Of a DNA stretch of 64,000 bases, positions 4,929-40,845 are shown in pieces. Under the pieces are notes generated by a model, which was not told the origin of the DNA, did no database searches, and worked only from the letters and a program-made list of their open reading frames with translations. A program made the position numbers and the translations under genes. This DNA comes from Candidatus Nomurabacteria bacterium RIFCSPHIGHO2_02_40_30. GTDB taxonomy: Bacteria; Patescibacteriota; Minisyncoccia; Phycocordibacterales; UBA9973. Each line of letters opens with the position of its first letter. The first letter of the stretch is position 1. Where the stretch lies: assembly GCA_001785445.1 (NCBI GenBank), contig MFTV01000010.1, forward strand, positions 19,235 through 83,234, given 5' to 3'.

Positions 4929-6620
4929 ATGCAGAGTGAAACAAAAAATTGCCAAAACTGTAAAGGTGATTTCGTCATCGAACCGGATGATTTTGGGTTT
5001 TATGAACAGATGAAAGTGCCCCCACCAGTATGGTGTCCGCAGTGCAGGCTACTTCGCAGAATGAATTGGTATAGTTATAGAATTCTGTATAAAAGAAAAT
5101 GTGATTTTACCGGTGAGAATATTATTACAATCTATCATCCGGATTTGCCTTACAAAGTTTATAAACAAGATATTTGGTGGAGTGACAAGTGGGACCCAAA
5201 GAGTTATGGCCGGGAGTATGATTTTTCGCGGCCTTTTTTCGAGCAGTTTAAAGAGTTACTAGATGAGGTGCCAAAGGCGGCTCTGCATACAGAATATACT
5301 ACTATGATAAATAGTGAATATTGTAATGCTGCAAGTTACTTGAAAAATAGCTACCTTTGTTTTAAGCACATTACAGGGGAGGATTCTGCCTACACCAACG
5401 TTGTTTCAAATACAAAAGATTCTCTGGATGTAGCTTATTCTTTAGATCCTGAACTTTGCTATGAAATAGTGGACTGCCGTAAATGCTTCCAGGTATTTTT
5501 CTCACAGGATTGTGAAAATTGTCAGAATATTTATTTCTCACGAGATTTAATGAATTGTGGGGATTGTTTTGGCTGTACTTCACTTCGCAATAAAAATTAT
5601 TGCATTTTCAATCAGCAATACACCAGAGAAGAATATTACAAGAAACTTTCGACTTTTGATTTGGGTTCAGTAAAAAATTTACAAGATTTTAGAAAGAAAG
5701 CTTACGAACTTTCTCTGCGTTCTCCCCGAAGGGCATTTCAAGGCAGAAACAATACGAATGTCTCCGGAGACTATGTGTATAATTCAAGAAATGCCAAAAA
5801 TGTCTATTTTATATCCGACTCTGAAAATATAAGGTATACCCAGTTGTTTATAAAAGGAGGAGTACACAATTGTTATGACTTTACAGCTTTTGGTTCTGCC
5901 AGTGAATGGGTTTATGAGGCTACATGGACTGGTCTTAATACTTCCAATGTTAAATTCAGTGTCTGGAATTATCGCAATCACGATACGGAGTATACTTTTG
6001 GTTGTCATGGCAGTGAATACTTGTTTGGCTGTGTCAGTCTGACTAAAGCGTCATATTGTATTTTTAATAAACAATACACGAAAGAAGAATATTTCCCACT
6101 AGTTGAAAAAATTAAAAAACAAATGAATCAGATGCCTTTTGTAGATAGAAGGGGGCTGGAACACAAATATGGCACGCAAATTCCTATTGATCTTTGTCCG
6201 TGGGCATATAACGAGTCCACAGCTTATGAATTTTTTCCAATCACAAAAGAGGAAGCTATCGCTAAAGGTTTTACTTGGCGTGACTCTGACCCGCGGGAAT
6301 ATCTGGACGCTTCTATTACAGTGCCGGAACATATCAAAGATGTAACTGATGAGATTTTGAAAGCGATTTTGAAATGTGTTGCTTGTGGCAAAAATTATCA
6401 AATTATATCCAAAGAATTAGTATTTTTACGCCGTTTTAATTTTCCTATACCGAGCCATTGCCCACTATGTCGAGACCGAGCTCGTATTAAACAATTAAAT
6501 CCTATGGAGACATATGACCGCACGTGTGATAAATGCAGCATATCAATTACTACATCCTATGCCCCAGACCGTCCCGAAATAGTTTACTGCGAAAAATGCT
6601 ATCAGCAGGAAGTTTACTAG
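4929..6620 (+). CDS. Cysteine-rich multi-zinc-ribbon protein, paralog 3 of 5
   Basis: Start moved to ATG 4929 (MQSETKNCQNCKGDF...), which removes the overlap with paralog 2. Carries the same conserved motifs as the family. C-terminus CDKCSISITTSYAPDRPEIVYCEKCYQQEVY. Confidence 0.85.
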   Translation: MQSETKNCQNCKGDFVIEPDDFGFYEQMKVPPPVWCPQCRLLRRMNWYSYRILYKRKCDFTGENIITIYHPDLPYKVYKQDIWWSDKWDPKSYGREYDFSRPFFEQFKELLDEVPKAALHTEYTTMINSEYCNAASYLKNSYLCFKHITGEDSAYTNVVSNTKDSLDVAYSLDPELCYEIVDCRKCFQVFFSQDCENCQNIYFSRDLMNCGDCFGCTSLRNKNYCIFNQQYTREEYYKKLSTFDLGSVKNLQDFRKKAYELSLRSPRRAFQGRNNTNVSGDYVYNSRNAKNVYFISDSENIRYTQLFIKGGVHNCYDFTAFGSASEWVYEATWTGLNTSNVKFSVWNYRNHDTEYTFGCHGSEYLFGCVSLTKASYCIFNKQYTKEEYFPLVEKIKKQMNQMPFVDRRGLEHKYGTQIPIDLCPWAYNESTAYEFFPITKEEAIAKGFTWRDSDPREYLDASITVPEHIKDVTDEILKAILKCVACGKNYQIISKELVFLRRFNFPIPSHCPLCRDRARIKQLNPMETYDRTCDKCSISITTSYAPDRPEIVYCEKCYQQEVY

Positions 6621-6638: not shown

Positions 6639-7154
6639 CTATCTCCCGAAAGCGTCGAAGAGAAATTTTTTAGTTTCTTCGTCTATGAATTGGGTGGTGA
6701 TTATCATCATCTCTGTCGTCAGACCTAAATCTTTTTTTATATTCGTGAATAGATGCTCGTACGGGTATGGGGAAATCCAAGCGGAATTTTTCAGGCAGAC
6801 GAAACCGGCTTTTTTCAGAAGATAACGCAAACTTTCGCGTTCGCTTTTTCTGTCTTCCGGCAAGTCGAGCAAAATTATTCTCCAGAGTCCGTCCCAAGAA
6901 ATATTTACCAGTGTCGTATCATTATCTAATTTTAAAGTATTCACTTTTTTCTTACCTTCTTTAGTGAGTCGTGCATATTCATTTTGTGGAGAAGAAATAT
7001 TCTCTATTAACCCAGCATCTCGAAGCCCTTTGAGGGAGCGAGTGATAGCGTATCTATTTTCAACATCTAAATTACGAAATTCAGGTAAAGAAACAGCTGT
7101 TTTTTGTCCTAGAATCTTAAGTATTTTATTTGAATAGTCTTTTTTACTTGACAT
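6639..7154 (-). CDS. Winged-helix transcriptional regulator, PaaX-like family
   Basis: N-terminal wHTH ([15 protein letters not shown]) and C-terminal [45 protein letters not shown], which matches the PaaX-type W.G.WR..DIPE...R..LR..L...GF..LQ.SVW pattern. Divergent from dnaK. Confidence 0.55.
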
Positions 7155-7254: not shown

Positions 7255-9168
7255 ATGTCAAAAATTATAGGTATAGACTTGGGTACAACGAATTCGGCAG
7301 TAGCCGTCATTGAGGGTGGCGCGCCGAAAATTATAGAAAATATTGAAGGCGCTCGCACTACGCCGTCAATCGTTTCTGTTGCGAGAAATGGCGACAGGCT
7401 GGTGGGGCTTTTAGCTAAGCGTCAGGCAGTTACCAATCCGGAAAATACAGTCTACGGCATCAAGCGCTTCATGGGACACAATTTTGACGACCCCGAAGTG
7501 CAGAAAGATTTGAAGAATGCGTCCTTCAAAGTTCAGAAATCTGCTAATGGCGGAGTGGAAGTAAAAATTGGCGACAAATGGATGCGTCCGGAAGAAATTT
7601 CGGCCATGATTTTAGGGAAAATAAAAGCAGACGTAGAAGCAAAATTGGGAGAAAAAATTACTGATGCGGTAATCACCGTGCCGGCATATTTTAATGACGC
7701 GCAGAGAAAAGCTACCAAGGATGCCGGTGCTATTGCCGGGCTGGATGTAAAACGCATCATCAACGAGCCTACGGCGGCGGCATTGGCCTATGGATTTAAT
7801 AAAAAGAAAAATGAAAAGATAGTGGTCTATGACTTTGGTGGTGGAACATTTGATGTATCTATTCTTGAAATCGGAGATGACGTGGTGGAAGTAAAGTCTA
7901 CCGATGGCGACAGTCACTTAGGTGGCCGGGACATTGACCACAAGATTATAAATTGGATTGCTGAAGAATTCAAAAAGACTACGGGTGTGGATGTGCGCAA
8001 TGACAAGCTGGCTCTACAGAGGCTCGACGAAGCGGCAGAAAAAGCAAAAATAGAACTTTCTACTTCTATCGAAACCGAAATAAATATTCCATTTATAACT
8101 TCTACATCTGCTGGCCCTCAACATCTCCTCCTTAAGATGACTCGCGCCCAGCTGGAGTCTATTGCTGACGAATATATTTCTCGCTCTATCGAGATAACCA
8201 AGCGCGCTATGACTGCATCCGGCTTCAAGATGGAAGATATGCATGAAATCATCATGGTGGGTGGACAGACTCGCATGCCTAAAATCGTAGACGAGGTTAA
8301 AAAAGTTTTCGGCAAGACTCCGAACTTATCTATCAACCCTGACGAAGTGGTGGCGCTCGGCGCTGCGGTGCAGGCCGGAGTGTTGCAGGGAGATGTGCGG
8401 GATGTTCTGCTCCTAGACGTTATTCCGCTTTCTCTCGGCATCGAAACTCTCGGTGGCGTGGCAACGAAGCTTATAGAAAGAAATACAACTATTCCTTCAA
8501 ACAAGTCGCAAGTATTCTCTACGGCTGCCGACAATCAAACTAGTGTGGAGATTCATATAGTGCAAGGTGAGCGCCCAATGGCTTCCGACAACAAATCTCT
8601 CGGTAGATTTATCCTAGACGGCGTGCCACCGGCTCCACGAGGTATGCCACAAATCGAAGTGTCTTTCGATGTGGATGCGAATGGAATCCTCAACGTGACT
8701 GCCAAAGACAAAGCTTCCGGCAAGACACAGTCTATCAAGATAGAAGCAAGCTCCGGACTAAAAGACGAAGACATCAAAAAAATGCAGGCGGATGCGGAGC
8801 TTCACGCCGAGGAAGATAAAAAGAAAAAGGAAGTTGTGGACGTGAAAAATACTGCCGAGATGATAATTTACACTGCCGAAAAAGCGCTGAAAGACAATGA
8901 AGCGAAAATTCCCGAGGAACTCAAAGATAGCGTAAACGCAAAAATCGCAACATTGCGAACTGCGAAAGATGGAACTGATTCTGAAGCAATCAAAAAAGCC
9001 ACCGAAGAACTTTCTGCCGAAATGTCAAAAATAGGGGAAGCGATAAGCAAAGCCACCGCCGAGGCGGGGCAAGCTGGTGCAGAAGCTCCTGCTGGAGCTT
9101 CTGCTGAAGAGCCAAAGGTCGAACCCAAAGATGCCGACTTCAAGGAAGGCGAAGAACCAAAAGCGTAA
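7255..9168 (+). CDS. dnaK: Chaperone DnaK (Hsp70)
   Basis: Start set at [18 protein letters not shown] (ATG 7255). Classic Hsp70 motifs present: [26 protein letters not shown], and a C-terminal lid with an acidic tail. Confidence 0.95.
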
Positions 9169-9240: not shown

Positions 9241-9456
9241 TTAGTACCAGCGACTGCTTGATTGATGCGCTCGGTTGGCGGCCTCAATGCGTGCCGCTAC
9301 TGTCGCCGAATCTTCGGCTATGGGAGCGCCTTTGGCTCGTTTGCGACTCACACAAGCCGCATTTCTGAGATCCAACAGTTTCTTTCCTGTTATCAACCCA
9401 GATTTGCGCGCACTTGCATACTTCTGTCCAGCGTTTGGGACTTGCGAATGTGCCAC
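9241..9456 (-). CDS. rpsU: 30S ribosomal protein S21 (GTG start)
   Basis: Basic 71-aa product: ...SARKSGLITGKKLLDLRNAACVSRKRAKGAPIA...ANRAHQSSSRWY. This resembles S21 (SCEKAGVL...ERKRAKASAV...RRTRLY). A GTG start is preceded by AAAGGAG with a 7-nt spacer. The locally GC-rich sequence produces overlapping spurious ORFs on the + strand. Confidence 0.5.
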   Translation of the reverse strand: MAHSQVPNAGQKYASARKSGLITGKKLLDLRNAACVSRKRAKGAPIAEDSATVAARIEAANRAHQSSSRWY

Positions 9457-9552: not shown

Positions 9553-9771
9553 ATGAAGAAATTAAACTTACAAAATATAGTTTGGAAAGAGGGGAAATAC
9601 TATGTTTCTCAGTGTTTAAATGTAGATGTCTCTAGTTTTGGCAAGACAAAAAAAGAGGCGCTTAAAAATTTAAGTGAAGCTCTAGATTTGTATTTTGAAG
9701 AAAAAAGTATTCCAAAATTCCAAGAGGTTAAAAGCCCGGAAATATTCCCTATGGCTTTTAGGTATGCCTAA
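9553..9771 (+). CDS. hicB: HicB-like antitoxin (type II TA, UPF0150 fold)
   Basis: 72 aa; ...EGKYYVSQCLNVDVSSFGKTKKEALKNLSEALDLYFEE matches the HicB/UPF0150 pattern (..GGYxAxxPELPGCxxxGDTxEEAxxNxxEAIELYLE). Overlaps the next ORF by 8 nt. Confidence 0.55.
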   Translation: MKKLNLQNIVWKEGKYYVSQCLNVDVSSFGKTKKEALKNLSEALDLYFEEKSIPKFQEVKSPEIFPMAFRYA

Positions 9772-9985
9772 ACTTCTGTCTTCCGCACAAATAATAAGTA
9801 TCATTGAAAGAAAAGGTTTCGTTTTTATTTCCCAAAAAGGAAGCCATATGAAATTCAGAAAATACGGGAATAAAAATCTGACAGTAATTGTTCCAGCCAA
9901 TAAAAAAGAAATTCCTATGGGAACCCTTCACTCAATCATTCGTCAGTCTTCCCTTCTTAAAGAAGATTTTTTACTTTCTAAATAA
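9764..9985 (+). CDS. hicA: HicA-like mRNA interferase toxin (YcfA family)
   Basis: Start at internal ATG 9764 (MPKLLSSAQIISIIERKGFVFISQKGSHMKFRKYGNKNLTVIVPANKKEIPMGTLHSIIRQSSL). This matches HicA (..LLxxGFxxxRQKGSHxxxxHPDGRxxTVPxHxxKDLxxGTLxSIxKQAGL). Confidence 0.6.
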   Translation: MPKLLSSAQIISIIERKGFVFISQKGSHMKFRKYGNKNLTVIVPANKKEIPMGTLHSIIRQSSLLKEDFLLSK

Positions 9986-10090: not shown

Positions 10091-10576
10091 TTAAGCCACG
10101 TTAGAAATTACGTGATTGTAGGAAATACAGAGTTTGCCTAGCTCCCAGTTTTGGGAGTCGCTGAACTCTTGTCTGGCCGCATACAGTTCTGCCGCTCGCT
10201 GTTGAACTTTGTCTTCGGAGACAGTAGCATTCTGAAGCTGATACTCTGCCAAAGCCCAGTCGAACCGTGCCCTGGCTTGTGAGATACATAGAGCAACGTG
10301 TCGAGCTGTGCTCGAAAAGGATTCAGGAGTCACTACGTGACGGTCCCGAGCCAGTCGAAGCGAGCCTTGATAGTAGGACGGCACATAGTATTCGCGTGAT
10401 ACCAACATCCACGCGAAGTGATGATCGACCCGTCGTTCCATTTCTTCTTCGTTTGTGTTCACTCGCCCAGTCTCCGCTCGCCAGCGCCAGATTCCATAGG
10501 CTACGCAAAGCACAAATTGGTCAAAGAACCCCTGTTTAACCGGTTGCTGAATTCTTCCCGATTCACTCAACGACAT
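10091..10576 (-). CDS. Hypothetical protein encoded by a compositionally atypical, GC-rich patch
   Basis: 161-aa ORF with ATG preceded by AAAGGAG (6-nt spacer). Local GC is roughly 50% against roughly 35% in flanking genes. Product is W/R-rich with no family recognised by eye. Confidence 0.5.
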   Translation of the reverse strand: MSLSESGRIQQPVKQGFFDQFVLCVAYGIWRWRAETGRVNTNEEEMERRVDHHFAWMLVSREYYVPSYYQGSLRLARDRHVVTPESFSSTARHVALCISQARARFDWALAEYQLQNATVSEDKVQQRAAELYAARQEFSDSQNWELGKLCISYNHVISNVA

Positions 10577-10697: not shown

Positions 10698-10973
10698 CCC
10701 GTTAGAGATAACTTATGTTTCACTACACTTACATATTAAAAAGTCAAAAGGATGGTAAAATGTATACTGGCTATACAGAGGACCTACGGAAGCGCCTTAG
10801 TCAACATAACAAAGGTTTGTCTAACTACACGAAAGATAGAGGCCCATTTGATTTAATATATTATGAAGCGTGTTTACTGGAAGATAAAGCAAGGTCGAGA
10901 GAATTATTTTTAAAATCGGGAATGGGCAAGCGTTATCTAAAAAATAGATTAGGCGCTTCCTATCTCTAACGGG
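10698..10973. mobile_element. Minimal GIY-YIG-encoding element: 13-bp terminal inverted repeats flanked by a 7-bp direct repeat
   Basis: Left inverted repeat cccgttagagata (10698-10710) is the exact reverse complement of the right one, tatctctaacggg (10961-10973). Both are flanked outward by identical ATGAAAT (10691-10697 and 10974-10980). The downstream ATGAAAT copy is the start codon of the HAD gene. Confidence 0.6.
10715..10969 (+). CDS. GIY-YIG domain nuclease (small stand-alone, UPF0213-like)
   Basis: HYTYILKSQKDGKMYTGYTEDLRKRLSQHNKG...TKDRGPFDLIYYEA matches the GIY-YIG pattern (YxYILxS..G.xYxGxTxDLxxRLxxHN.G...T...GPW.LVYYE). The gene fills an element bounded by 13-bp inverted repeats. 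Confidence 0.75.
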   Translation: MFHYTYILKSQKDGKMYTGYTEDLRKRLSQHNKGLSNYTKDRGPFDLIYYEACLLEDKARSRELFLKSGMGKRYLKNRLGASYL

Positions 10974-11618
10974 ATGAAATATTCTTCGGTGATTTTTGAT
11001 TGGGATGGGACATTGGGGATGACTTTGCATTTGTGGTTTGAAGGATATAAAAGTGAATTGAAAAAGTTAGGGCGCGAATATTCAGACCAAGTTATCATAG
11101 ATGACTTTTTCTATGAGCATAAAAAGACAATGCTGAAATACCCTGATATGGACTTCGATGCTTTTATAGAGAATGTCCGAAAGTATATGATTAGCCATGT
11201 CTCCCATATGAAGCTATACGAAGGAGTACACGAAACATTAGAAAAGTTGCAGGAAAATAATATCAAGCTGGCGCTGGTTTCTTCAAGCCCTAGAAAATTA
11301 CTGGAAGAAGTTCTTGAACTCACAGATTTATCTAAATTTTTCTCTGCCATTTCTGGATTCGACGATATTATGAAACACAAACCCGACCCTGAACCATTTT
11401 TGTATATTATAGAAGTTGCAAAGCTAGACCCAAAAAATACTATTATCATAGGGGATTCACCTCATGATATTAGTGCTGCTAAAGCCGCTGGCATAGACTC
11501 CTGTCTTTTTTTACCGGAAGAAAACAAAATTTTTTATGACTTTGAAAAATTAAAACAAACCAACCCAACATATTGCGTGGAAACTCTGAAAGAATTCGCC
11601 AATATCGTTATAAGTTAG
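10974..11618 (+). CDS. HAD-superfamily hydrolase (phosphatase / phosphoglucomutase-like subfamily IA)
   Basis: Motif I VIFDWDGTL; motif III/IV ...KHKPDPEPF...IIIGDSPHDISAAKAAGI. Confidence 0.8.
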   Translation: MKYSSVIFDWDGTLGMTLHLWFEGYKSELKKLGREYSDQVIIDDFFYEHKKTMLKYPDMDFDAFIENVRKYMISHVSHMKLYEGVHETLEKLQENNIKLALVSSSPRKLLEEVLELTDLSKFFSAISGFDDIMKHKPDPEPFLYIIEVAKLDPKNTIIIGDSPHDISAAKAAGIDSCLFLPEENKIFYDFEKLKQTNPTYCVETLKEFANIVIS

Positions 11619-11835: not shown

Positions 11836-11904
11836 AGGTACCTCCCATTTATAATTATAACGTATTTATTTTGAAAAAATCTATAAAAAAGGTACAATTA
11901 ACAA

Positions 11905-13920
11905 ATGAGTGATTTACCGGAAATACCTCAAAATAAAGAGCTGACGTATCTTGGCGTCAGTACCTATCGGGACAAAAATGTTCTTTTTGGTATCAAGCGC
12001 AAAGACAGACGCCAGCATGTTTATATTCTTGGTAAGTCCGGCACAGGTAAGTCTGCCTTGATGTTTAACATGATTATTCAAAACATTCAGAACGGCGAGG
12101 GTGTTTGTATGGTAGACCCGCACGGCGAAAATGTGGAAGCGATTCTCTCCGCTATCCCGCCGCATCGCATGAAAGATGTGATTTATTTCAATCCGGCTGA
12201 TGCCGACCACCATATCGGCTTTAATGTTTTAGAACTTATTGACCCGCAGTACAAGCATTTGGTGGCTTCGGGGCTCATGGGTATTTTTACTAAAATTTGG
12301 GCCAATGCTTGGAGCGCCCGAATGGAATATATTTTGAACAATTGCATCCTAGCATTGCTTGACACTCCGGGGACGACGCTTCTCGGCATTCCGAGAATGT
12401 TAGTGGACAAAGATTATCGCCAAAAAATAATTTCTAACTTGAAAGACCCGGTCATCAAGGCTTTCTGGGTGCACGAGTATGAAGCCTGGCAGGACAAATT
12501 TAGGAATGAAGCTATCGCGCCGATTCAGAACAAAGTCGGGCAATTTCTCTCCACTTCTATAATCAGGAATGTCGTCGGTCAGAGCAAGAGCACGATAAAT
12601 ATTTTCGATATGATGAATGAGGGCAAAATTTTTCTGGTGAATGTTTCTAAGGGTCGCATTGGTGAAGACAATTCCGGTCTCTTGGGCGGCATGATTATTA
12701 CCAAAATTCAGCTAGCCGCTATGGAGCGGGTGCGCGTGCCGGAAGAGTCAAGACGCGATTTCTACCTATATGTGGATGAATTCCAGAACTTTGTGACAGA
12801 TGCTTTTGCCGGCATCTTATCCGAAGCTCGCAAGTACAGGCTGAACTTAACCGTGGCGCACCAGTACACCGCCCAGCTTGTCTCCGACAAAAGTACTGCG
12901 GTGCGCGATGCGGTTTTTGGCAACGTGGGCACGATGATAGTTTTTCGGGTTGGCGCTGACGATGCGGAATTTCTAGAAAAAGAATTTGACCCCGAGTTTA
13001 CTCCACAGGATTTAGTCAACCTGCCGAATTACAAAGCCTACCTGAAATTAATGATAGACGGTGTGACCTCCCGTCCTTTTTCCGCTAAAACTTTGCCGCC
13101 CATGGTCAAGTCGGGCAATAAAGAAGTTGAAGAAGAAGTGATTAAATCTTCCCGTGATTTGTATTGTCGGCCGAAAGCAGTAGTAGAAAGAGAGATTAAT
13201 GATTGGAGTGGAATGTCGCTCGGTGATGATAATGCTCACTCTTCTTCAACTTTGGAGAAGTTTCCAGCTATATGTTCAATGTGTAAAAAAGAAACTACGG
13301 TGCCATTCAAGCCAGAGCCAGGCAGAGCGGTGTATTGCAAAGAGTGTATAGCTAAAATAAAGTCAGGTGAAGTAAAAGTAGAGAAAGGTTCTGAAAATCA
13401 AATTAAATATGATGAATCTAAATTTTTCAAACCATTGGCTGACCTAGGCATAGAATTCGAACAGAAAGATAAAGGCGGGCACAACGGAGAAGACAGGCAT
13501 CCAGAGAGAGGCTTTACTCATACAGCAGCGCACACGAAAAGCCAACCCGGAATACTGGGAGCTATTAAAAAAGTATTCAATAAAACTCCTGCCCCAGTTG
13601 AGATTCCCAAAAAGCCAAAACCAGAAAATCTAGCTTTGAAAGAAGTTTTAGGTAAAATAAATGAACCAGCCTCGACTAGCGCGAGTCTAGGCGGGCCAGT
13701 TTCACTCGACACCCTAAAAGACAAAATCAAAGAAACAAATAAAAATTTAACACATTCTAAAGACCGTTCCGCCAGCCCAGAAGAAATGCATAAATTAAAA
13801 GATTTAATTATTGAGAAAATGGAAAAAAATGAAGATAAAAAAGTTTCAGAACCTCCTTTGACACCAGGCAACATAAAAGAAGTGCCGGAAGATGTCCTCC
13901 GAAAAATTTTAGAACAGTAA
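11905..13920 (+). CDS. TraD/TraG/VirD4-family (T4SS coupling-protein-like) P-loop ATPase with C-terminal DksA/TraR-like C4 zinc finger and charged tail
   Basis: Walker A YILGKSGTGKS, Walker B FYLYVDEFQNF, and a TraG-D_C-like region (SEARKYRLNLTVAHQYTAQL...FGNVGTMIVFRVGADD). Near the C-terminus CSMC-x17-CKEC with ...PEPGRAVYCKEC, then a long K/E-rich tail. Confidence 0.75.
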   Translation: MSDLPEIPQNKELTYLGVSTYRDKNVLFGIKRKDRRQHVYILGKSGTGKSALMFNMIIQNIQNGEGVCMVDPHGENVEAILSAIPPHRMKDVIYFNPADADHHIGFNVLELIDPQYKHLVASGLMGIFTKIWANAWSARMEYILNNCILALLDTPGTTLLGIPRMLVDKDYRQKIISNLKDPVIKAFWVHEYEAWQDKFRNEAIAPIQNKVGQFLSTSIIRNVVGQSKSTINIFDMMNEGKIFLVNVSKGRIGEDNSGLLGGMIITKIQLAAMERVRVPEESRRDFYLYVDEFQNFVTDAFAGILSEARKYRLNLTVAHQYTAQLVSDKSTAVRDAVFGNVGTMIVFRVGADDAEFLEKEFDPEFTPQDLVNLPNYKAYLKLMIDGVTSRPFSAKTLPPMVKSGNKEVEEEVIKSSRDLYCRPKAVVEREINDWSGMSLGDDNAHSSSTLEKFPAICSMCKKETTVPFKPEPGRAVYCKECIAKIKSGEVKVEKGSENQIKYDESKFFKPLADLGIEFEQKDKGGHNGEDRHPERGFTHTAAHTKSQPGILGAIKKVFNKTPAPVEIPKKPKPENLALKEVLGKINEPASTSASLGGPVSLDTLKDKIKETNKNLTHSKDRSASPEEMHKLKDLIIEKMEKNEDKKVSEPPLTPGNIKEVPEDVLRKILEQ

Positions 13921-13922
13921 GA

Positions 13923-15683
13923 ATGAAGATAGAAACCCAAAATTTATCATGGCTAGATATACCAAAGTCTATTTGGTATTTTCTAGAAAAAGATAAAAAG
14001 AAGTCTCTTTTTTATTTTATCGTCATTGTCATAGCATTTTTTTATGATCTCGTTCCCGCATATATTGTAGGTAAAATGGTTGATTTTTTTACTGGCTATA
14101 CACAGGGTCAATCACTTAGTCTTTTTTATTTTTATGTAGTTTTTGTAGGTGTTACTTGGATAGTAGCCTCTCTCATACGCTTAAAAAGCCATAAAGTTTT
14201 AAGTATCGCCAGTAAAAAAGCTCGTACCCGAGCACGTGTTTGGGGATTTGAGCGCTTAACCGAGTTTTCTCTCGGGTGGCATAATAAAGAAAATACAGGA
14301 AACAAATTTCAGCGAATTTTTACTGGAGCAGAAGCTATTGAAAAATGGGTATTAATATTAAGAAGAGATTTGCTTCGGATTATGGCTAACTCTGTCGGGG
14401 TGTTAATATTTTTTTTATTTCTAGACTTTAAATTTATTTCTTTAGTGCTTATATATGCGTTACTTTTTTTGTATGTCGAATTTTCGTTCGGTAAGAAAAT
14501 ACTTAGATTAAGTAATGATTTTAATCTATCTAATCAATCGGCAGGAGGGGTTTACATAGAAAGCGCAAACAATATGCTTGCTGTCAAAGCATTAGGTGCG
14601 AAAGATGGCTTGGTTTCTCGTGTTAAAGATAAAGAAACTATTTCCCGTGATCTTTCGATACAAAAAACAACTATTAGTAATTTCAAGTGGCAACTGTTGC
14701 AGTTTATAAACGGCTTTTCAATAAGTATTTTTCTTTTAATTGCTGGTTTTGCCAGTATTTCTAATGCTATAACAATTGGTATGGTTTTAGTAATATTCAC
14801 TTACTTCTCTAAACTGCAAACTTCATTAAGTGAAATAAGTAACTTACACATGGATGTAATAGATCTTCGTTCAGATCTTGGCAACATGATGCCAATATTT
14901 AAGGAGACAGAATTTATTAAGACAGGCAATGAAAGTTTTCCGAAAGATTGGCAAAAAGTTGAAATTAAAAATGGAGTTATGGATTATGGCTCTGGGCAAA
15001 TGGGGTTAAAAGATTTTAATTTAGTGTTAAAAAGGAATACCAAAACCGGTATTGCCGGGTTATCTGGCTCCGGCAAGTCTACGTTGGCAAAAATTATTTT
15101 AGGCTTATACGGCTTGAAAACAGGGACTTTTAAAGTAGGCAATAAAAATTATTATTCAATTGCGCACAACGAAACCTTGAGCAATATTAGTGTGGTTCTG
15201 CAAGAGACAGAACTTTTTAATCTTTCTTTGCGGGACAACATCACTATGATGCGCGTGGAAGACAAAGAACTTCTGGATATAGCAGTAGAAATTTCCAATC
15301 TTGATGAAGTTATAGGCCGTTTACCGGAGGGGCTCGATGCTATGATAGGTGAAAAAGGGTACATGCTCTCCGGCGGGGAGAGGCAACGTCTCGGCATTGC
15401 CCGTGCGATTTATAAAAATGCGCCAATTATAATTCTCGACGAAGCCACGTCTTCGCTTGATTCGGAGACGGAAGGCAAAATAATGGAGAAACTTTTAGGA
15501 GAGTACGGTAAAGACAAAACTTTCTTAATCATTGCGCACCGCTTGGGTACGCTTAAATATACTGACAACATTGCCGTGATGGAAAGAGGGAAAGTAGTGG
15601 AAGAAGGAAGTTATGATAAGTTAATGAACAACCAGAGCTCTGTCTTTTATAGAATGAATAAAGAAAAAAAAGATGAAAAATAG
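13923..15683 (+). CDS. ABC transporter, fused permease/ATP-binding protein (exporter type)
   Basis: N-terminal 6-TM domain. Nucleotide-binding domain has Walker A GLSGSGKST, signature LSGGERQRLGIARA, and Walker B IIILDEATSSLD. The 3' end overlaps the next gene by 11 nt. Confidence 0.85.
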   Translation: MKIETQNLSWLDIPKSIWYFLEKDKKKSLFYFIVIVIAFFYDLVPAYIVGKMVDFFTGYTQGQSLSLFYFYVVFVGVTWIVASLIRLKSHKVLSIASKKARTRARVWGFERLTEFSLGWHNKENTGNKFQRIFTGAEAIEKWVLILRRDLLRIMANSVGVLIFFLFLDFKFISLVLIYALLFLYVEFSFGKKILRLSNDFNLSNQSAGGVYIESANNMLAVKALGAKDGLVSRVKDKETISRDLSIQKTTISNFKWQLLQFINGFSISIFLLIAGFASISNAITIGMVLVIFTYFSKLQTSLSEISNLHMDVIDLRSDLGNMMPIFKETEFIKTGNESFPKDWQKVEIKNGVMDYGSGQMGLKDFNLVLKRNTKTGIAGLSGSGKSTLAKIILGLYGLKTGTFKVGNKNYYSIAHNETLSNISVVLQETELFNLSLRDNITMMRVEDKELLDIAVEISNLDEVIGRLPEGLDAMIGEKGYMLSGGERQRLGIARAIYKNAPIIILDEATSSLDSETEGKIMEKLLGEYGKDKTFLIIAHRLGTLKYTDNIAVMERGKVVEEGSYDKLMNNQSSVFYRMNKEKKDEK

Positions 15684-17451
15684 CGAAATAAAAAATTGCC
15701 AAAATTGCAAGAAAGATTTCACCGTTGAGCCGGAGGATTTTAATTTTTATGAAAAAATCAAAGTTCCTCCGCCAACTTTTTGCCCAGAATGCAGGCTGGT
15801 GCGGCGAATGCTGTGGCGTAATGAACGCTCGCTTTTCAAAAGGTCTTGCGCCAAAACGAGCAAACAAATAATCACCATGTTTCATCCGGATGCTAAGGTG
15901 GTGGTATATGACCATGACACATGGTGGAGTGACCAGTGGGAACCGACCGATTATGGAAAAGATTATGATTTTTCTAAACCGTTTTTTGAGCAATTCAAAG
16001 AATTACTTTACCGAACATCATTAGCGAATTTAGGAAATTCCAATAACGTTGGCAGTCCTTACGGCAATCACAATGCCGACTGCAAGTATTGCTATTTATT
16101 ATACGCTTCTTTCAACGTTGAACGAACACATTATTCTTATGGCGCGGTTAGATTGAAAGATTGCATGGATATGTATGTCTGTTTGCATTCCGAATTGTGT
16201 TATAACGATATTGTCAGCACTGATTTGTATAAAACTCATTTTTCTTATGACGCGGACGAGTCTGTTAATTGCTTTTTTCTGAAGTATTCTAAAAATATGC
16301 AAGACAGTATTGGCTGTATAAATTTGAGAAATAAAAGTCATTGCATTTTAAATGTAGAATATTCAAAAGAAGAGTACGAGAAAAGGAAAAAAGAGTTTGA
16401 TTTCGGCAGTTATAAAGTTTTGTTTGAATTTGAAAATTCTTTTAACAGACTTGTCCTTAATGTTCCGTACCGATATGCGCACATCATGAAATCTAAAGAT
16501 GTTACCGGAGACAATATTATAAACTCTAAAAATGTAAAGAATTGTTTTGATATTTATCAAAATGTGGAAGATTCAAAGTATTTAATTCATTGCTTGGACG
16601 CCAAGGACTGTTATGACTTATATGGCGGTGGCGCGGTGGCATCTTTAATGTACGAAGGAGTGGATATTGGAAAAGAATCGTCCAAGCAATTATTTTCCAT
16701 ACTCACTCATACTTGTTTCCAAACTTATTATACCTACATGTGCTATAACTCAAAAAATCTTTTTGGCTGTATCGGCTTGCGGGGGAAGCAGTACTGCATT
16801 TTGAATAAGCAGTATTCCAAAGAAAAATATTTTGAACTATTGCCGAAAATTATTGAGCATATGAATACCATGCCCTATAAAGATAAAAAAGGACTAATTT
16901 ATAAATATGGAGAATTTTTCCCAAGCGAATTATCGCCTTTTGCTTATAACGAGACAATTGCCCAAGAATATTTTACAAAAACTAAAGAAGAAATTGTTAA
17001 AGACGGATATACTTATAGAACTTCACCGGCAAAGGATTATCAAGCGACTATTTTGAACAAAGATTTACCAGATCATATCAAAGATGTTTCTGATTCTATT
17101 CTTAAAGAGGTGATTGCTTGTCCTAACGATGGCAAAGAACTGACTCAATGTACCAAAGCTTATCGTATTATTAAATCCGAGTTAGAATTTCTAAAAAATA
17201 ATAACATTGCTTTGCCGCGCTATTGCCCCAATTGCCGTCACTATAAAAGACTCAAGCAAAGAAATCCATTCAAACTCTGGCAGGCTAAATGTCAGTGCGC
17301 TGGGGCTAACTCTCAAAATAAAAAATACAAAAACACAATAAAACATACTCATGGAACCAAACCTTGTCCGAACGAATTTGAAACAAGCTATGCTCCTGAC
17401 CGACCGGAAATTATTTATTGTGAAAAATGTTACCAGCAGGAAGTTTATTGA
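15673..17451 (+). CDS. Cysteine-rich multi-zinc-ribbon protein, paralog 4 of 5
   Basis: MKNSEIKNCQNCKKDFTVEPEDFNFYEKIKVPPPTFCPECRLVRR..., the WWSDQWEPTDYGKDYDFSKPFFEQF motif, and C-terminus CPNEFETSYAPDRPEIIYCEKCYQQEVY. The ATG sits inside the ABC exporter stop region, which suggests translational coupling. Confidence 0.85.
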   Translation: MKNSEIKNCQNCKKDFTVEPEDFNFYEKIKVPPPTFCPECRLVRRMLWRNERSLFKRSCAKTSKQIITMFHPDAKVVVYDHDTWWSDQWEPTDYGKDYDFSKPFFEQFKELLYRTSLANLGNSNNVGSPYGNHNADCKYCYLLYASFNVERTHYSYGAVRLKDCMDMYVCLHSELCYNDIVSTDLYKTHFSYDADESVNCFFLKYSKNMQDSIGCINLRNKSHCILNVEYSKEEYEKRKKEFDFGSYKVLFEFENSFNRLVLNVPYRYAHIMKSKDVTGDNIINSKNVKNCFDIYQNVEDSKYLIHCLDAKDCYDLYGGGAVASLMYEGVDIGKESSKQLFSILTHTCFQTYYTYMCYNSKNLFGCIGLRGKQYCILNKQYSKEKYFELLPKIIEHMNTMPYKDKKGLIYKYGEFFPSELSPFAYNETIAQEYFTKTKEEIVKDGYTYRTSPAKDYQATILNKDLPDHIKDVSDSILKEVIACPNDGKELTQCTKAYRIIKSELEFLKNNNIALPRYCPNCRHYKRLKQRNPFKLWQAKCQCAGANSQNKKYKNTIKHTHGTKPCPNEFETSYAPDRPEIIYCEKCYQQEVY

Positions 17452-17454
17452 CCT

Positions 17455-17590
17455 CACCCCCAGCCTCTCTCAACCCTTCCAGACCTCCCCTTGTCAGGGG
17501 AGGCAAATGGTTTTCCCCTGATAAGGGGGATGCAAGATGGTTTAAGGAGAGGGTGGCCGAAGGTCGGGTGAGGTGAATTATGTTATAATA
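17455..17590 (+). other. GC-rich, multi-hairpin intergenic element between paralog 4 and the second TraD-like ATPase
   Basis: Outer stem acctcaccc / gggtgaggt. Inner hairpins cctcccc-ttgtca-ggggagg and tcccc-tgataa-ggggga. Very GC-rich compared with the flanking AT-rich coding sequence. Starts at the paralog 4 stop codon. Confidence 0.45.
17581..17589 (+). promoter_or_regulatory. Extended -10 promoter element (TGTTATAAT) upstream of the second TraD-like ATPase
   Basis: TGnTATAAT match 9 nt before ATG 17598. The same TTATGTTATAATA string recurs at 61898-61910 upstream of the gene at 61917. Confidence 0.4.
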
Positions 17591-17597
17591 CTTAATT

Positions 17598-19100
17598 ATG
17601 CCCAAGCCGAATCGAGTGCAGATAATAAAATATGGTCCGCCGCCGCCGGAGTTACCGGTCTTCGGAAAGGTTAAACCCGAAGACGTTTCTTTTATTGGGC
17701 GGACTAATTATGTGGCATCTCTCGAAGAAAAGAAATTTATTTTTGGCATTAAGCGCATAGACCGACGCAGGCATTTGTATATATTAGGGAAATCCGGTGT
17801 CGGCAAGAGCAAATTGCTCGAGCTTTTAATGCGCCAAGACATTACTTACAATCATGGACTTTGCCTGATTGATCCACATGGTGACGAACTTGAAGGAATA
17901 CTGGATTATATACCCAAAGAACGCATCGAAGATGTTTGCATTATTGACCCGACTGACGTTAATTTCCCGGCTTCTTTTAATCCGCTGGCGAACGTTGACC
18001 CGATGTTCAAGTTTCAGCTCACGCAAGGACTGATCGAAGTTTTTCAAAAACAATTCGGCGCCAACTGGACGCCTCGACTTGAGCACGTTTTCCGTTTCAC
18101 TTGTCTGGCGCTTTTGGATTATCCACATGCCACCATGCGTGGAATGATTTCCATGCTGACCGATAGAAATTACCGGCAGAAAGTGGTGGAGTATATTACG
18201 GATGACATGGTAAAAAGATTCTTCGCTATTGAATTCGCCGATTGGTCGGAAAAATTCGATACTGATGCGATTATTCCATTAGTTAACAAATTAGGGCAAT
18301 TTCTATCCGACCCCTTGCTTCGCAATATTTTCGGTCAAAAAGAAAATAAAATAGATATCAGCGAATTAATGAATCAGGAAAAAATAATTCTGATTAATAT
18401 TTCTAAAGGTCGGCTGGGAGAAGAAAATTCTTCTTTCCTCGGGTCAATCTTTCTCACTAAAATAAAACAAGCCGGTATGGAACGTGCCGCAATTCCGGAA
18501 AGAGAAAGAAAAGATTTCTATTTATATGTAGACGAGTTTCAAAATGTTGTTACCCAAACTTTTGAAAATATTTTATCGGAGGCCAGAAAATATGCCTTGA
18601 ATTTAACTATCGCGCACCAATATGTCGGACAGATTATTCCCAGAGTCCACCAAGCAGTGCTTGGTAATTGTGGTAGCGTGATTACTTTTCGCGTCGGCGG
18701 TGAAGACGCAGTCAAAATGAAACCTGAGTTTGCTCCGCTCTTTGATGTTAAGGACATGATCAATCTTGCCGTGACAGAGTTTTATATAAAAATGACTATT
18801 GACGGCGAATCTTACGACCCATTCTCGGCAGAAACCTTGAAAGTTTTGTCGCCAACTCATCCTTCATATAGAGAAGAAATAGTAGCCGCTTCTCACCGAA
18901 AATATTCGATACCGAAAGATGCCGCAGCCAAACTCATTGCCGAAGAAGAAGCCACTATCATTCGAAGTTCTGAGGAAAAAGCTATTATTGAAAGTAAAGC
19001 TAAGAGAAAAGAAAAAGAAAAAGGATTGGCAAGTGAAGAGGGAACAGCAGACACAAGTTCAAAAAAGAAAACTTCCCAAGAAGCTGAACCTATGATATAA
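17598..19100 (+). CDS. TraD/TraG/VirD4-family P-loop ATPase, paralog 2 (no zinc finger)
   Basis: YILGKSGVGKSKLLELL...DPHGDE, FYLYVDEFQNVV, and ARKYALNLTIAHQYVGQI...GNCGSVITFRVGGED. Colinear with the 11905 protein but lacks its CxxC tail. Confidence 0.75.
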   Translation: MPKPNRVQIIKYGPPPPELPVFGKVKPEDVSFIGRTNYVASLEEKKFIFGIKRIDRRRHLYILGKSGVGKSKLLELLMRQDITYNHGLCLIDPHGDELEGILDYIPKERIEDVCIIDPTDVNFPASFNPLANVDPMFKFQLTQGLIEVFQKQFGANWTPRLEHVFRFTCLALLDYPHATMRGMISMLTDRNYRQKVVEYITDDMVKRFFAIEFADWSEKFDTDAIIPLVNKLGQFLSDPLLRNIFGQKENKIDISELMNQEKIILINISKGRLGEENSSFLGSIFLTKIKQAGMERAAIPERERKDFYLYVDEFQNVVTQTFENILSEARKYALNLTIAHQYVGQIIPRVHQAVLGNCGSVITFRVGGEDAVKMKPEFAPLFDVKDMINLAVTEFYIKMTIDGESYDPFSAETLKVLSPTHPSYREEIVAASHRKYSIPKDAAAKLIAEEEATIIRSSEEKAIIESKAKRKEKEKGLASEEGTADTSSKKKTSQEAEPMI

Positions 19101-19115
19101 TGTCTTAATAAAGCC

Positions 19116-20213
19116 ATGAACAAAGACTACTACAACATATTAGGAGTAAATAAAAATGCTCCAAAAGAGGAAATCAAGAAGGCTTTTTATAAGCTGGCGC
19201 ATAAATATCACCCTGATAAAAAAGAGGGGAACGAAGCCAAGTTTAAACAAGTTAATGAGGCTTATCAAACTTTATCTGACGATGATAAACGAGCAAAGTA
19301 TGACCAATTTGGTCCGACGAATATGGATGGCGGCCACGCAGGACATCAGCAAGGTGGATTTGGCGGTTTTGATTTTAGTAATTTTTCAGGGGGCTTCCAG
19401 GACGGCAGTGCGAACTTTGACTTTGGCAACTTGAATGACATTTTTAGCGATTTTTTTACTGGTGGCATGGGAGAGGGCAGAAAGGAAGCTCGCCGCGGTC
19501 GAGATATCTCAACTGAAGTGCAAATTTCTTTTTCCGATTCTATTTTCGGTATTAATAGAAAAATTTTAATTACTAAAACCTCCAACTGTCTGACGTGTAA
19601 TGGTTCTGGCGCAAGGGCTGGCTCCAAAGTGGAAACCTGCAAACATTGCAATGGTCAAGGAAAGATTCGCGAATCTAAAAGAACTATTTTCGGCAATGTT
19701 GCCAGTACGAAAATCTGCGATACATGTTTGGGGACAGGCGAGGTACCGAAAGAATTATGTGAAAAATGCAAGGGTAAAGGCGTACTGCGCCGTGAAGAAG
19801 AAATCTCCATCACCATTCCAGCCGGCATACGCGACGGAGAAATGATTCGCATGACAGGTCATGGCGAAGCAATTTCCAAAGGCACAGCTGGAGACCTTTA
19901 TATTAAAATAAATGTGGCGCCGCATGCATTGTTCAAGCGCGAGGGTAATGATTTGGTTATGAATTTGAATTTAAAACTTTCCGACGCGCTTTTAGGCACA
20001 GAGTACCCAATTCAAACTCTAGACGGAGAAATCAAAGTTACTATTCCGGAAGGCGTTACCATCAATGAAATCTTGCGCGTGCGAGGCAAGGGCGTGCCTG
20101 TGTCTAAAAATAAACGTGGCGACCTATTGATTAAACTCAATATCAAACTTCCGTCAAAAATTTCTCGTACATCTCGCGCTCTCATAGAAGAACTCAAAAA
20201 AGAGGGGATATAA
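19116..20213 (+). CDS. dnaJ: Chaperone DnaJ (Hsp40)
   Basis: J-domain with HPD (YHPDKK), G/F-rich linker, four CxxCxGxG zinc-finger repeats (CLTCNGSG, CKHCNGQG, CDTCLGTG, CEKCKGKG), and a C-terminal substrate-binding domain. Confidence 0.9.
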   Translation: MNKDYYNILGVNKNAPKEEIKKAFYKLAHKYHPDKKEGNEAKFKQVNEAYQTLSDDDKRAKYDQFGPTNMDGGHAGHQQGGFGGFDFSNFSGGFQDGSANFDFGNLNDIFSDFFTGGMGEGRKEARRGRDISTEVQISFSDSIFGINRKILITKTSNCLTCNGSGARAGSKVETCKHCNGQGKIRESKRTIFGNVASTKICDTCLGTGEVPKELCEKCKGKGVLRREEEISITIPAGIRDGEMIRMTGHGEAISKGTAGDLYIKINVAPHALFKREGNDLVMNLNLKLSDALLGTEYPIQTLDGEIKVTIPEGVTINEILRVRGKGVPVSKNKRGDLLIKLNIKLPSKISRTSRALIEELKKEGI

Positions 20214-20216: not shown

Positions 20217-20795
20217 ATGTTACCAGGACAAGTTGTTTATATTGGTTTACTTTTGCAGTTCATAGGGCAGATATCGTATATTGCAAGTATTTTTAGGGGA
20301 CATGCAAAACCTAACTTAGTTTCATGGTTTATTTGGATGTTGGCGCCCATGATTGGTTTCTTTTTTCTGGTTCAAGCTGGAGCAGGGTTCTCTGCTCTAC
20401 CTATTTTCATGGCTGGTTTTGGACCTGCTATAATTATTCTTTTTTCAATTTTTATTAAAAATGGATACTGGAAAATAAATGCTTTTGATTTATATTGTGG
20501 GGCTCTCGCTCTTCTTGCGTTGATATTCTATGTTGTTACTCATAACTTGGGTATCTCAATTATTTTTGCCATGTTGAGTGATAGTTTGGCCGCTGTTCCA
20601 ACTATTGTAAAATCATGGAAGTTTCCTGAGACAGAAAGTGGTCTACTCTTTTTTCTCGCAATGTTATCGAATATTCTTGGATTGCTTACAATTAAAGTCT
20701 GGTCTTTCTCAATATCCATATTCGGTATTTTTGTTGTAATTCAATGCGTTGTTATATTATTTTGTATTTATAGAAAAAAGATTTTCAAATTTTAG
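20217..20795 (+). CDS. Hypothetical integral membrane protein (about 6 TM)
   Basis: 192 aa, highly hydrophobic with several predicted TM helices. No recognisable family. Confidence 0.5.
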   Translation: MLPGQVVYIGLLLQFIGQISYIASIFRGHAKPNLVSWFIWMLAPMIGFFFLVQAGAGFSALPIFMAGFGPAIIILFSIFIKNGYWKINAFDLYCGALALLALIFYVVTHNLGISIIFAMLSDSLAAVPTIVKSWKFPETESGLLFFLAMLSNILGLLTIKVWSFSISIFGIFVVIQCVVILFCIYRKKIFKF

Positions 20796-37899: not shown

Positions 37900-38007
37900 T
37901 TGAAAACATTACCATATAAAGCTATATTTAGGCAATGGAGGCTCAAACAAAAACCTGTCACCCCGAACGAAAGCAAAGCTTCGTACGGGGCAGGAAATTG
38001 TAAAAAT

Positions 38008-40838: not shown

Positions 40839-40845
40839 CAAAAGT

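Follow-up and report, generated by a model that had tools for sequence, protein, structure and literature searches.

The described proteins closest to those reported here are the type IV coupling proteins (T4CPs), and homologues of these occur in Patescibacteria. A survey in Microb Genom in 2025 gives 5,713 VirD4-type matches in 2,918 Patescibacteria genomes, about two per genome, with just 148 of the 5,713 near virB4, and its authors allow exaptation (PMC12102498). Another described relative is the CxxC-x17-CxxC zinc-finger family, of which two small proteins from Methanosarcina mazei were found by inductively coupled plasma mass spectrometry (ICP-MS) to bind zinc (PMC12704099). Both kinds of protein meet in the stretch of DNA analysed here, 64,000 nucleotides (nt) of contig MFTV01000010.1 of Candidatus Nomurabacteria bacterium RIFCSPHIGHO2_02_40_30, the whole of which is called the window below: two T4CP-like ATPase paralogues, ATPase1 and ATPase2, stand together with genes of a cysteine-rich (Cys-rich) protein family that shares the zinc finger of ATPase1. 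Our results revealed that this is a conserved and non-conjugative association. The T4CP homologues of the survey are very probably the same proteins as these ATPases; in its text, as far as searched, no paralogue pair, zinc finger, membrane partner or fusion, Cys-rich array, or dnaK-dnaJ or secDF context is found, and dnaK, Hsp70, chaperones and transmembrane segments go unmentioned (PMC12102498). In the literature we found no description of the Cys-rich family, nor any report that ties T4CP-like ATPases of Patescibacteria to dnaK and Cys-rich proteins. The ATPase-plus-zinc-finger-protein system is real, non-conjugative and apparently undescribed.

The association is carried by gene order in related genomes, which was followed in two sets of loci (numbered with an L below), one anchored on the ATPases, with one genome per species scanned and 80 loci kept, and one anchored on the Cys-rich genes, with metagenome contigs scanned and likewise 80 loci kept. 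Three protein searches, with ATPase1, ATPase2 and a Cys-rich protein, gave at least 8,000 significant candidates each, and among the matches listed all those named by organism are Patescibacteria (Nomurabacteria, Paceibacteria, Parcubacteria and Berkelbacteria). In the Cys-rich-anchored set, a T4CP-like ATPase of any kind is present in 32 of the 80 loci and both paralogues in 21, and a Cys-rich gene lies at most 600 nt from an ATPase gene in 29, a direct adjacency of 36% against well under 1% expected for a random gene, the expectation being a rough estimate that assumes about two ATPase genes among the several hundred of a genome. Chaperone genes (DnaK/DnaJ/GrpE) occur in 16 of these loci, an ATPase without any chaperone gene in 18, and the gene of a membrane protein described below in 8. 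Moreover, ATPase2 and Cys-rich genes co-localise among the species-representative loci (4/5 versus 1/74, Fisher p 1.6e-5). The conserved core is ATPase1 with its zinc finger, then one to seven Cys-rich genes, then ATPase2, found in at least four architectures with chaperone genes optional, namely dnaK-A1-CYSn-(ABC)-A2-dnaJ; MEMB-A1-CYSn-A2-CYSn; MEMB-A2-CYS-A1; and secDF-MEMB-A1-A2 with Cys-rich genes downstream (A1 and A2, the ATPases; CYS, Cys-rich gene; MEMB, membrane-protein gene; ABC, ATP-binding cassette exporter). Considering the locus counts, the four gene orders and the co-localisation test together, the association of ATPase1, Cys-rich genes and ATPase2 is robust; the three families have remained linked across several independent rearrangements. 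A linkage between ATPase and Cys-rich genes had been put forward in the first-pass annotation of this DNA, a model's reading made from the letters alone; it is conserved in many genomes and several architectures, and co-localisation in related genomes holds, with direct adjacency in the 29 loci mentioned.

In the window, the members of this association are as follows (amino acids are abbreviated aa).

11905-13920, + strand: ATPase1, 671 aa, soluble T4CP-like P-loop ATPase with zinc finger
17598-19100, + strand: ATPase2, 500 aa, finger-less soluble T4CP-like paralogue
1503-3158, 3184-4872 and about 4929-6620, + strand: Cys-rich paralogs 1-3, in tandem between grpE and dnaK
15673-17451, + strand: Cys-rich paralog 4, 592 aa
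about 38008-39726, + strand: Cys-rich paralog 5, outside the chaperone locus, just 5' of mraY-ftsW-murG

The feature which joins the two families is the zinc finger. ATPase1 consists of a core (about aa 1-440), a finger domain (aa 452-485, nt 13258-13359) and then a variable K/E/P-rich tail, and the finger reads CSMC-x17-CKEC at aa 457-481, just as had been pointed out near its C-terminus from the letters. It matches PF23477 (zf_Tbcl_2) at aa 452-484 with 45-51 bits against a cut-off of 27, the isolated finger giving 51, and TIGR04272 with 48 bits against 36, and its cysteines have the x2/x17/x2 spacing; by these profiles it is a predicted treble-clef CxxC-x17-CxxC zinc finger (PF23477/TIGR04272). 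The C4 finger of DksA/TraR has the same spacing, and the first-pass annotation had taken the finger for that type, a claim that falls: PF01258 (zf-dskA_traR) is unlisted even at E <= 10 for the isolated ATPase1 finger, and likewise for the paralog fragments. Besides lacking this profile match, the ATPase1 finger differs from DksA/TraR in having no preceding coiled coil and in its consensus (FkPd.gRPvYC). No finger was found in ATPase2. For the Cys-rich proteins, the C-termini of paralogs 2-5 match PF23477 below threshold (14.5-26.2 bits versus the cut-off of 27), and that of paralog 1, with x18 spacing, has no PF23477 match. At the level of families the picture is clearer: when a profile of 60 ATPase fingers was aligned by hhalign with one of 177 Cys-rich C-termini, both from the fetched loci, the probability was 96% (E 4.8e-9), from which we conclude that one finger is common to ATPase1 and the Cys-rich family. 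The idea that the same finger ends all five paralogs is thus upheld for the family by this alignment.

The five paralogs in the window contain 29-39 cysteines each and have mutual identities of 28-44%; they carry several CxxC...CxxC motifs, their C-terminus is almost invariant, and Arg-rich helices follow the N-terminal and C-proximal fingers (CRxxRRxxxRN). Paralog 4 has a zf_Tbcl-like finger at its N-terminus, where PF13451 (zf_Tbcl) matches weakly, a probable beta-solenoid in its centre, and the CxxC-x17-CxxC-like finger at its C-terminus; in paralog 2 another CxxC-x17-CxxC-like finger lies at about aa 60-84, a place where paralog 5 has this spacing as well. Neither a signal peptide nor a transmembrane (TM) segment was found in the Cys-rich proteins. 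Their homologues, among the matches listed, are all named "hypothetical" and have no Pfam domain. Orthologues of paralog 4 are 72-78% identical to that of the window, to be compared with 75-77% for GrpE. Two gene starts deserve mention: for paralog 3 the mechanical TTG start at 4839 would overlap paralog 2, and the ATG at about 4929 (MQSETKNCQNC...) is likelier, since the resulting N-terminus matches the other paralogs, and for paralog 5 a start at about 38008 is probable, not 37879. Paralog 5 and mraY-ftsW-murG lie on one strand within 37879-45663, the paralog being at the edge of the cell-division/cell-wall (dcw) cluster, and in L006 and L007 a Cys-rich gene is found among polyamine-biosynthesis genes; the family is therefore not restricted to the ATPase locus.

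As for the ATPases themselves, ATPase1 lies above the Pfam cut-offs of TrwB_AAD_bind (44 bits versus 20.5, aligned over aa 33-350), DUF87, T4SS-DNA_transf and TraG-D_C, and ATPase2 matches the same ATPase families more weakly. The two are 44% identical over 429 aa (E 2e-133), which bears out the earlier proposal of a duplicated ATPase, 671 aa with the finger and 500 aa without. Both paralogues keep Walker A (GKSGxGKS) and Walker B (DEF) without variation, the motifs of P-loop nucleotide-binding domains (NBDs) of the FtsK-HerA type, and TrwB is the best relative by sequence in the PDB; on these two grounds "T4CP-like" is a fair label. The ATPases are not closer to HerA or FtsK than to T4CPs, the assignment envisaged in the first-pass annotation as the one that would speak against its own. 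In the structure model of ATPase1, helices occupy aa 114-224, with a predicted local distance difference test (pLDDT) score there of only about 60, and the closest folds, as far as a poor model of pLDDT 61 can tell, are the DNA-handling proteins T4CP, VirB4, DndH and HerA. The naming of the ATPases as TraD/VirD4-like accordingly stands as regards the Pfam T4CP families, but functional membership of the T4CP family fails on the TM anchor, on the genomic context and on the curated thresholds: no hydrophobic or TM segment was found in ATPase1 or ATPase2, and so none of the N-terminal anchor of T4CPs, and the NCBIfam T4CP scores are far under their cut-offs (46 bits versus 366 for SXT_TraD, the best; 40 versus 250 for CD1115). 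PADLOC gave no defence-system identity, only generic HerA and mad8 P-loop matches.

Both ATPases end in a conserved tip. At the extreme C-terminus of ATPase1 (13885-13920) it is EVPEDVLRKILE, occurring as (K/R)EVPEDVLRKILE in this clade and as a KPG(E/Q)xVxF type in other classes, while ATPase2 has a short K/E-rich tail with the tip EAEPMI (19080-19100), or EEPLI among relatives, which is retained also in loci without a downstream dnaJ. Lying beyond variable disordered linkers, these tips look like short docking motifs, a reading suggested by their conservation pattern. The proteins as a whole are conserved to a high degree. Identities to the window proteins were taken from the 13 dnaK-context loci that hold DnaK, ATPase1, ATPase2 and DnaJ all together, three more distant loci in the same comparison being lower throughout: the ATPase1 core is 83-95% identical (88-95% without L011) and ATPase2 77-92% (84-92% without L011), alongside 79-92% for DnaK, 68-83% for DnaJ and 53-79% for CysS. 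The ATPase identities match those of DnaK, which implies a constraint like that on Hsp70. In a neighbour-joining tree the ATPase2 sequences form one clade. Among the matches listed, homologues of ATPase1 go under the names "CxxC-x17-CxxC domain-containing" protein and "type IV secretion system DNA-binding domain-containing" protein. When cluster representatives were searched exhaustively, there were 23,615 clusters at E <= 1e-3 and 6,525 at E <= 1e-30; many of these proteins carry about 400 additional N-terminal residues.

The first-pass annotation had missed a conserved membrane partner of the ATPase in other lineages. In more distant Patescibacteria the gene of a membrane protein of about 400-530 aa precedes that of the ATPase, which in most cases retains the finger; the membrane-protein gene stands directly upstream in 44 of 79 loci with gaps mostly of -41 to 30 nt. 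The protein has one hydrophobic N-terminal stretch of about 40 aa, read as two TM segments (2-TM), and no Pfam or PDB match. Its hidden Markov model (HMM) aligns with roughly the first 400 aa of the long ATPase homologues, which links membrane partner and ATPase by gene fusion. Often preceding its gene are Sigma70_r4 + HARE-HTH (33 loci), secD/secF (30) and secA (12). A recurrent string can be seen across many Patescibacteria classes, (secA)...secD-secF, Sigma70_r4 + HARE-HTH, the 2-TM protein of about 450 aa and the T4CP-like ATPase, with examples among L014-L075 and other distant loci (L015:8502-9914 and L075:5395-6462 for instance); the C-terminus of the 2-TM protein has a conserved EELAT.YHFP motif, and in many homologues the protein is fused to the ATPase.

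A second point that had been overlooked is the placement of the module between dnaK and dnaJ. The other features of the locus in the window are the following, where ORF stands for open reading frame and TMD for transmembrane domain.

866-1471, + strand: grpE, by its GrpE-like translation; upstream end of the chaperone locus, with PF01025 GrpE at the matching position in relatives
6639-7154, - strand: putative regulator with a PaaX_M domain (Pfam PF20803, E 1.6e-19), divergent from dnaK
7255-9168, + strand: dnaK (Hsp70), PF00012
9190-11835, mixed ORFs: variable island from dnaK to ATPase1, an insertion of about 2.7 kb
11871-11898, + strand: promoter-like TTGAAA-16-TACAAT, a consensus match only (10/12), 6 nt before the ATPase1 ATG
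13923-15683, + strand: ABC exporter of 586 aa, fused TMD and NBD, MsbA/HlyB-like
17447-17578: GC-rich nested palindromic repeat with terminal inverted repeats ATTGACCTCACCC / GGGTGAGGTGAAT
17581-17589, + strand: extended -10-like site TGTTATAAT, 8 nt before the ATPase2 ATG
within 19086-19115: dnaJ -10-like site TGATATAAT, formed by the final codons and the stop codon of ATPase2 (CCT ATG ATA TAA T)
19116-20213, + strand: dnaJ, directly 3' of ATPase2

The order in the window is hence grpE, three Cys-rich genes, PaaX_M(-), dnaK, island, ATPase1, ABC exporter, paralog 4, ATPase2 and dnaJ. The five features from ATPase1 to ATPase2 described in the first-pass annotation are all present at their positions, the ORFs on the + strand, and the 11-nt overlap it had described between the stop of the ABC exporter and the start of paralog 4 was found (15673-15683); ATPase1 and the exporter are 2 nt apart, and ATPase2 and dnaJ 15 nt. 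In close relatives the frame is grpE...paaX(-)-dnaK-ATPase1-[...]-ATPase2-dnaJ-...-cysS(-) with a variable filling, and the ATPase pair lies between dnaK and dnaJ in the window and at least 15 related loci. For example, the ATPases directly adjoin in L004; two Cys-rich genes, a DUF5674 gene and a 96-aa ORF lie between them in L001; and L006 has dnaK-dnaJ with the ATPases absent from the locus. The slot grpE-CYS(n)-paaX(-)-dnaK is likewise filled in L001, L010, L091, L092, L094 and L107, and in L096, L147 and L163, from other lineages, a Cys-rich gene stands directly 3' of dnaK or grpE. In the ATPase-anchored scan, dnaK embedding is confined to relatives of at least 80% identity. The grpE-dnaK-dnaJ genes lie a few kb upstream of the ATPase gene in L013, L018 and L052, and in L018 and L052 directly 5' of the secDF/HTH-MEMB-ATPase string; from this order, the chaperone embedding may be a local rearrangement of an old synteny.

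Several neighbours of the chaperone genes are worth recording. The PaaX_M gene divergent from dnaK is kept in every related locus examined; in other bacteria this dnaK-adjacent place is usually occupied by hrcA, and being conserved there, the PaaX_M protein is a candidate heat-shock regulator. The gene directly 3' of dnaJ (20217-20795) codes for 192 aa, with six hydrophobic segments and nothing matching in Pfam, and is kept in most relatives with the dnaK-ATPase-dnaJ arrangement. The island contains two minus-strand orphan ORFs without Pfam match that are GC-rich against the 39% of the window (9241-9456, about 52%; 10091-10576, about 51%), together with a HicB/HicA-like toxin-antitoxin pair (9553-9985), a GIY-YIG gene (10715-10969), a HAD hydrolase gene (10974-11618) and a 60-aa ORF. 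It looks like a set of horizontally acquired insertions; in L004 the gap between dnaK and ATPase1 is just 62 nt.

The ABC exporter joins PF00664 (ABC_membrane) and PF00005 (ABC_tran) in one chain with five hydrophobic segments, in the manner of a type-I half transporter, has no C39 peptidase domain and falls below every NCBIfam equivalog cut-off. Besides the window, an orthologous exporter (>800 bits) is found in only four of the 80 Cys-rich-anchored loci (L108, L110, L122 and L148; 66-69% identity), lying inside the Cys-rich array in the window and in L110, L122 and L148, and no full-length exporter occurs in the 80 ATPase-anchored loci. At >= 100 bits, ABC exporters near Cys-rich genes number 6/80, by a rough estimate little above chance. 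From the counts of the two sets, the exporter was rejected as a general member of the module, and what remains of its claimed membership is a gene that is present and adjoins the others, with a weak association in one subclade.

The GC-rich multi-hairpin element fares similarly: it is present and stably folded, but as a facultative repeat it is only weakly part of the module. Its GC content is 57% versus 39% for the window, its folding energy is -71 kcal/mol (z = -5.3, with 0/200 shuffles as stable), and its terminal inverted repeats, listed above, are 13 nt long. A 65-nt hairpin version with 49 identical bases stands at the same junction in L122, the same version stands at the ATPase1/Cys-rich junction instead in L148, L093 and L094 have a related form upstream of ATPase2, and in L091, L092, L095 and L110 there is nothing at the place. 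Being absent or displaced in relatives, it was rejected as an integral part of the module. Rfam found tRNA-Glu only in the whole window at the gathering threshold, and with relaxed settings over 17380-17680 only chance-level matches (whalefall-1, for example, 17.5 bits versus 37), so the element does not belong to a known RNA family. A small nested palindromic repeat is the best reading of it, not a conserved regulatory RNA of the module. In L105:1-80 the inner two-hairpin unit of the window's element lies inside the region coding for the disordered tail of ATPase1, 5' of the tip, which suggests that palindromic repeats are tolerated in ATPase linkers, to which they may also contribute sequence.

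Hexamers resembling a -10 box lie 6-14 nt before the ATGs of ATPase1, ATPase2 and dnaJ with no intervening Shine-Dalgarno sequence, which suggests that these three mRNAs may be leaderless or near-leaderless. The promoter that had been ascribed to ATPase2 is present as the promoter-like site at 17581-17589, and a TGnTAnAAT-like motif 8-14 nt before the ATPase2 ATG is seen in L091, L092, L110, L122 and L148; promoter-like matches overall are no commoner than in shuffled sequence.

Taken together, we propose that the locus would encode part of a non-conjugative system conserved in Paceibacteria-type Patescibacteria, made of two paralogous VirD4/TrwB-class ring-type ATPases and a variable set of cytoplasmic multi-zinc-finger/beta-solenoid proteins whose genes lie between and around theirs. 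ATPase1 and ATPase2 would cooperate as one oligomeric motor of T4CP-like kind, probably in a mixed ring, and in the ancestral state the membrane protein would have tethered it to the membrane. The Cys-rich proteins would be intracellular partners of the motor, adaptors or clients, with constant docking fingers and variable solenoid bodies; they, or a ligand shared with ATPase1, would be recognised through the common finger and the conserved tips at the ATPase C-termini. The move of the module between dnaK and dnaJ would have taken place in this lineage, with promoters of its own and very short leaders; the ABC exporter would be an addition peculiar to the lineage, and the GC-rich element a palindromic repeat able to move. 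Since the arrangement recurs in many relatives whose surroundings lack conjugation genes, it points to a machine that is non-conjugative and so far undescribed. That the two ATPases form one motor, with the Cys-rich proteins as its intracellular adaptors or clients, we regard as an evenly balanced proposition. The fuller version, a membrane-associated T4CP-derived motor freed from conjugation and duplicated in Paceibacteria into a fixed pair, on which an expanded family of multi-zinc-finger beta-solenoid proteins would dock via the finger as interchangeable adaptors or clients, in a new kind of Hsp70/Sec-linked substrate handling, is tentative and falls somewhat short of an even chance.

A number of observations weigh against this proposal. 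The functional links rest entirely on gene order and shared domains, and the loci often come from related lineages, so that they cannot be counted as independent events. In 48 of the 80 loci the Cys-rich genes are distant from any ATPase, as are paralogs 1-3 and 5 in the window, and L004 and L011 have dnaK-A1-A2-dnaJ with zero Cys-rich genes in the locus. ATPase1 with finger and membrane partner is moreover widespread in lineages without detectable nearby Cys-rich genes, which implies that the primary role of the motor is independent of them. A search for a membrane-partner gene found none in the window (64 kb) and none, in close relatives, up to 10 kb from the ATPases. Since the ATPase1 model is poor, the assignment to T4CP versus VirB4 leans mainly on profiles. 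Finally, the t4cp homologue of Ca. Southlakia epibionticum is reported as non-essential (PMC12102498), which sits uneasily with DnaK-level conservation.

Among the other explanations, a dedicated secretion system is unlikely, in which the ATPases, together with the membrane protein as channel or anchor and, in certain lineages, with the ABC exporter, would take the conserved C-terminus of the Cys-rich proteins as an export signal and release them as surface or host-directed effectors, much as type IV or type VII secretion ATPases deal with substrates encoded beside them. T4CPs and EccC-type ATPases indeed read signals at the C-terminus of substrates whose genes are often close by; here arrays of 1-7 paralogues with a near-invariant C-terminus flank the ATPases, the membrane partner adjoins the ATPase or is joined to it, distant lineages have secA and secDF upstream, and in the window and three other loci the exporter is within the array. 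Yet the Cys-rich proteins have neither signal peptide nor TM segment and carry multiple zinc-finger motifs typical of cytoplasmic zinc proteins, their orthologues are conserved at the housekeeping level of GrpE, unlike typical effectors, ATPase1 bears the same finger even in lineages without the Cys-rich family, no channel component was found, and the few nearby ABC exporters come partly from one subclade. A membrane-tethered translocase that pumps DNA, for uptake or chromosome handling in nucleotide-auxotrophic cells, with fingers binding the substrate, we hold to be distinctly unlikely: DNA-processing genes are not consistently adjacent, the neighbours being Sec, chaperone and cell-wall genes, and nucleic-acid binding by PF23477 is inferred only, even though the ATPases belong to the FtsK-HerA superfamily with the DNA-handling folds named above, treble-clef fingers with Arg-rich helices may suggest nucleic-acid binding, and the family is large (the 6,525 clusters), extremely conserved and, in the survey, present at about two T4CP homologues per genome (PMC12102498). 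The chaperone context raises the further idea that the ATPase pair is an unfoldase- or disaggregase-like ring working with DnaK/DnaJ/GrpE, the Cys-rich proteins being holdase or redox co-factors or hard-to-fold clients. The pair between dnaK and dnaJ, the further Cys-rich genes after grpE, those right after dnaK or grpE in L096, L147 and L163, and the dnaJ -10-like site overlapping the end of ATPase2 all agree with it, but the embedding is limited to one clade and possibly a local rearrangement by the synteny of L013, L018 and L052, elsewhere the ATPase follows secDF-HTH-MEMB, 18 loci have ATPase and Cys-rich genes with no chaperone gene, and no T4CP-type ATPase is known as a protein disaggregase, which leaves this idea quite improbable.

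It may also be asked whether there is a functional unit at all, or only synteny by descent at a site of a streamlined genome that readily takes insertions, a hot-spot, with a common finger reused independently. The slot between the ATPases does accept unrelated genes (DUF5674 and the 96-aa ORF in L001, the ABC exporter, palindromic repeats), many loci are phylogenetically related, and Cys-rich genes occur in other contexts such as the polyamine genes of L006 and the dcw cluster of the window; against that, the trio stays together through at least four gene orders with differing surroundings, and the direct adjacency and the Fisher test given above are far from chance, so that we consider mere synteny very improbable. 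Least credible, hardly to be entertained, is the reading that goes back to the first-pass annotation, a module for DNA transfer by conjugation or a type IV secretion system (T4SS) whose finger would be that of a TraR-type regulator. Partial Pfam and NCBIfam matches to the TraD, VirD4 and TrwB families and the finger spacing of DksA/TraR are what speak for it. Besides the missing zf-dskA_traR match, the scores far under the T4CP equivalog cut-offs and the absence of a TM anchor from the window ATPases, no relaxase, VirB4 or other T4SS gene was found among the called genes of the window or of L001 and L004, nor in marker scans of related loci; the neighbours throughout the window are chromosomal housekeeping families only, and the conservation equals that of DnaK, unlike mobile tra genes.

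Patescibacteria make up a large share of bacterial diversity, and for many of the genes conserved among them no function has been assigned. For the roughly two T4CP homologues per genome of the survey (PMC12102498), the locus gives handles: they are distinct paralogues, as slow as Hsp70, one of them finger-bearing. Further handles are the membrane partner in other lineages and the large Cys-rich family tied to the pair and sharing its finger. These features define candidate interaction partners and targets for truncation and mutation. If the coupling suggested here is true, a conjugation-type motor would have been re-used for a core cellular task.

To compare the locus with known systems, the ATPases share with the T4CPs (VirD4/TrwB/TraD/DotL/Cagbeta) the FtsK-HerA P-loop NBD and the matches to TrwB_AAD_bind, T4SS-DNA_transf and TraG-D_C above cut-off, and the TrwB_AAD_bind profile spans the putative all-alpha insertion, where the model is of low confidence (pLDDT about 60). 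TraD of the F plasmid has a disordered C-terminal extension with a conserved terminal motif, and the window ATPases likewise end in a disordered extension and a conserved tip; moreover, their relatives have a 2-TM N-terminal module, either fused or encoded upstream. They differ from T4CPs in lacking a TM anchor and any relaxase, VirB4 or mating-channel context, in being chromosomal, as slow as DnaK and fixed as two paralogues, in the C-terminal zinc finger of ATPase1, in the membrane module of relatives, which has about 400 aa and no match to a known family, and in NCBIfam scores far below the cut-offs. From type VII EccC/EssC with its substrate arrays the locus differs in the ATPase subfamily; there are no WXG100/LXG-type substrates and no EccB/D/E homologues here, the neighbours being large zinc-finger proteins. 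The M. mazei TIGR04272/PF23477 proteins have a finger of the same family as that of ATPase1, but they are small stand-alone proteins, whereas here the finger is joined to an ATPase and to multi-finger proteins of about 580 aa. SecA, finally, is a motor ATPase in which a flexible linker leads to a small zinc-binding domain for the docking of partners. Its C-terminal zinc tail is offered as an analogy only, with no homology claimed and with a finger type different from that of ATPase1, and many Patescibacteria place the ATPase gene downstream of secA and secDF.

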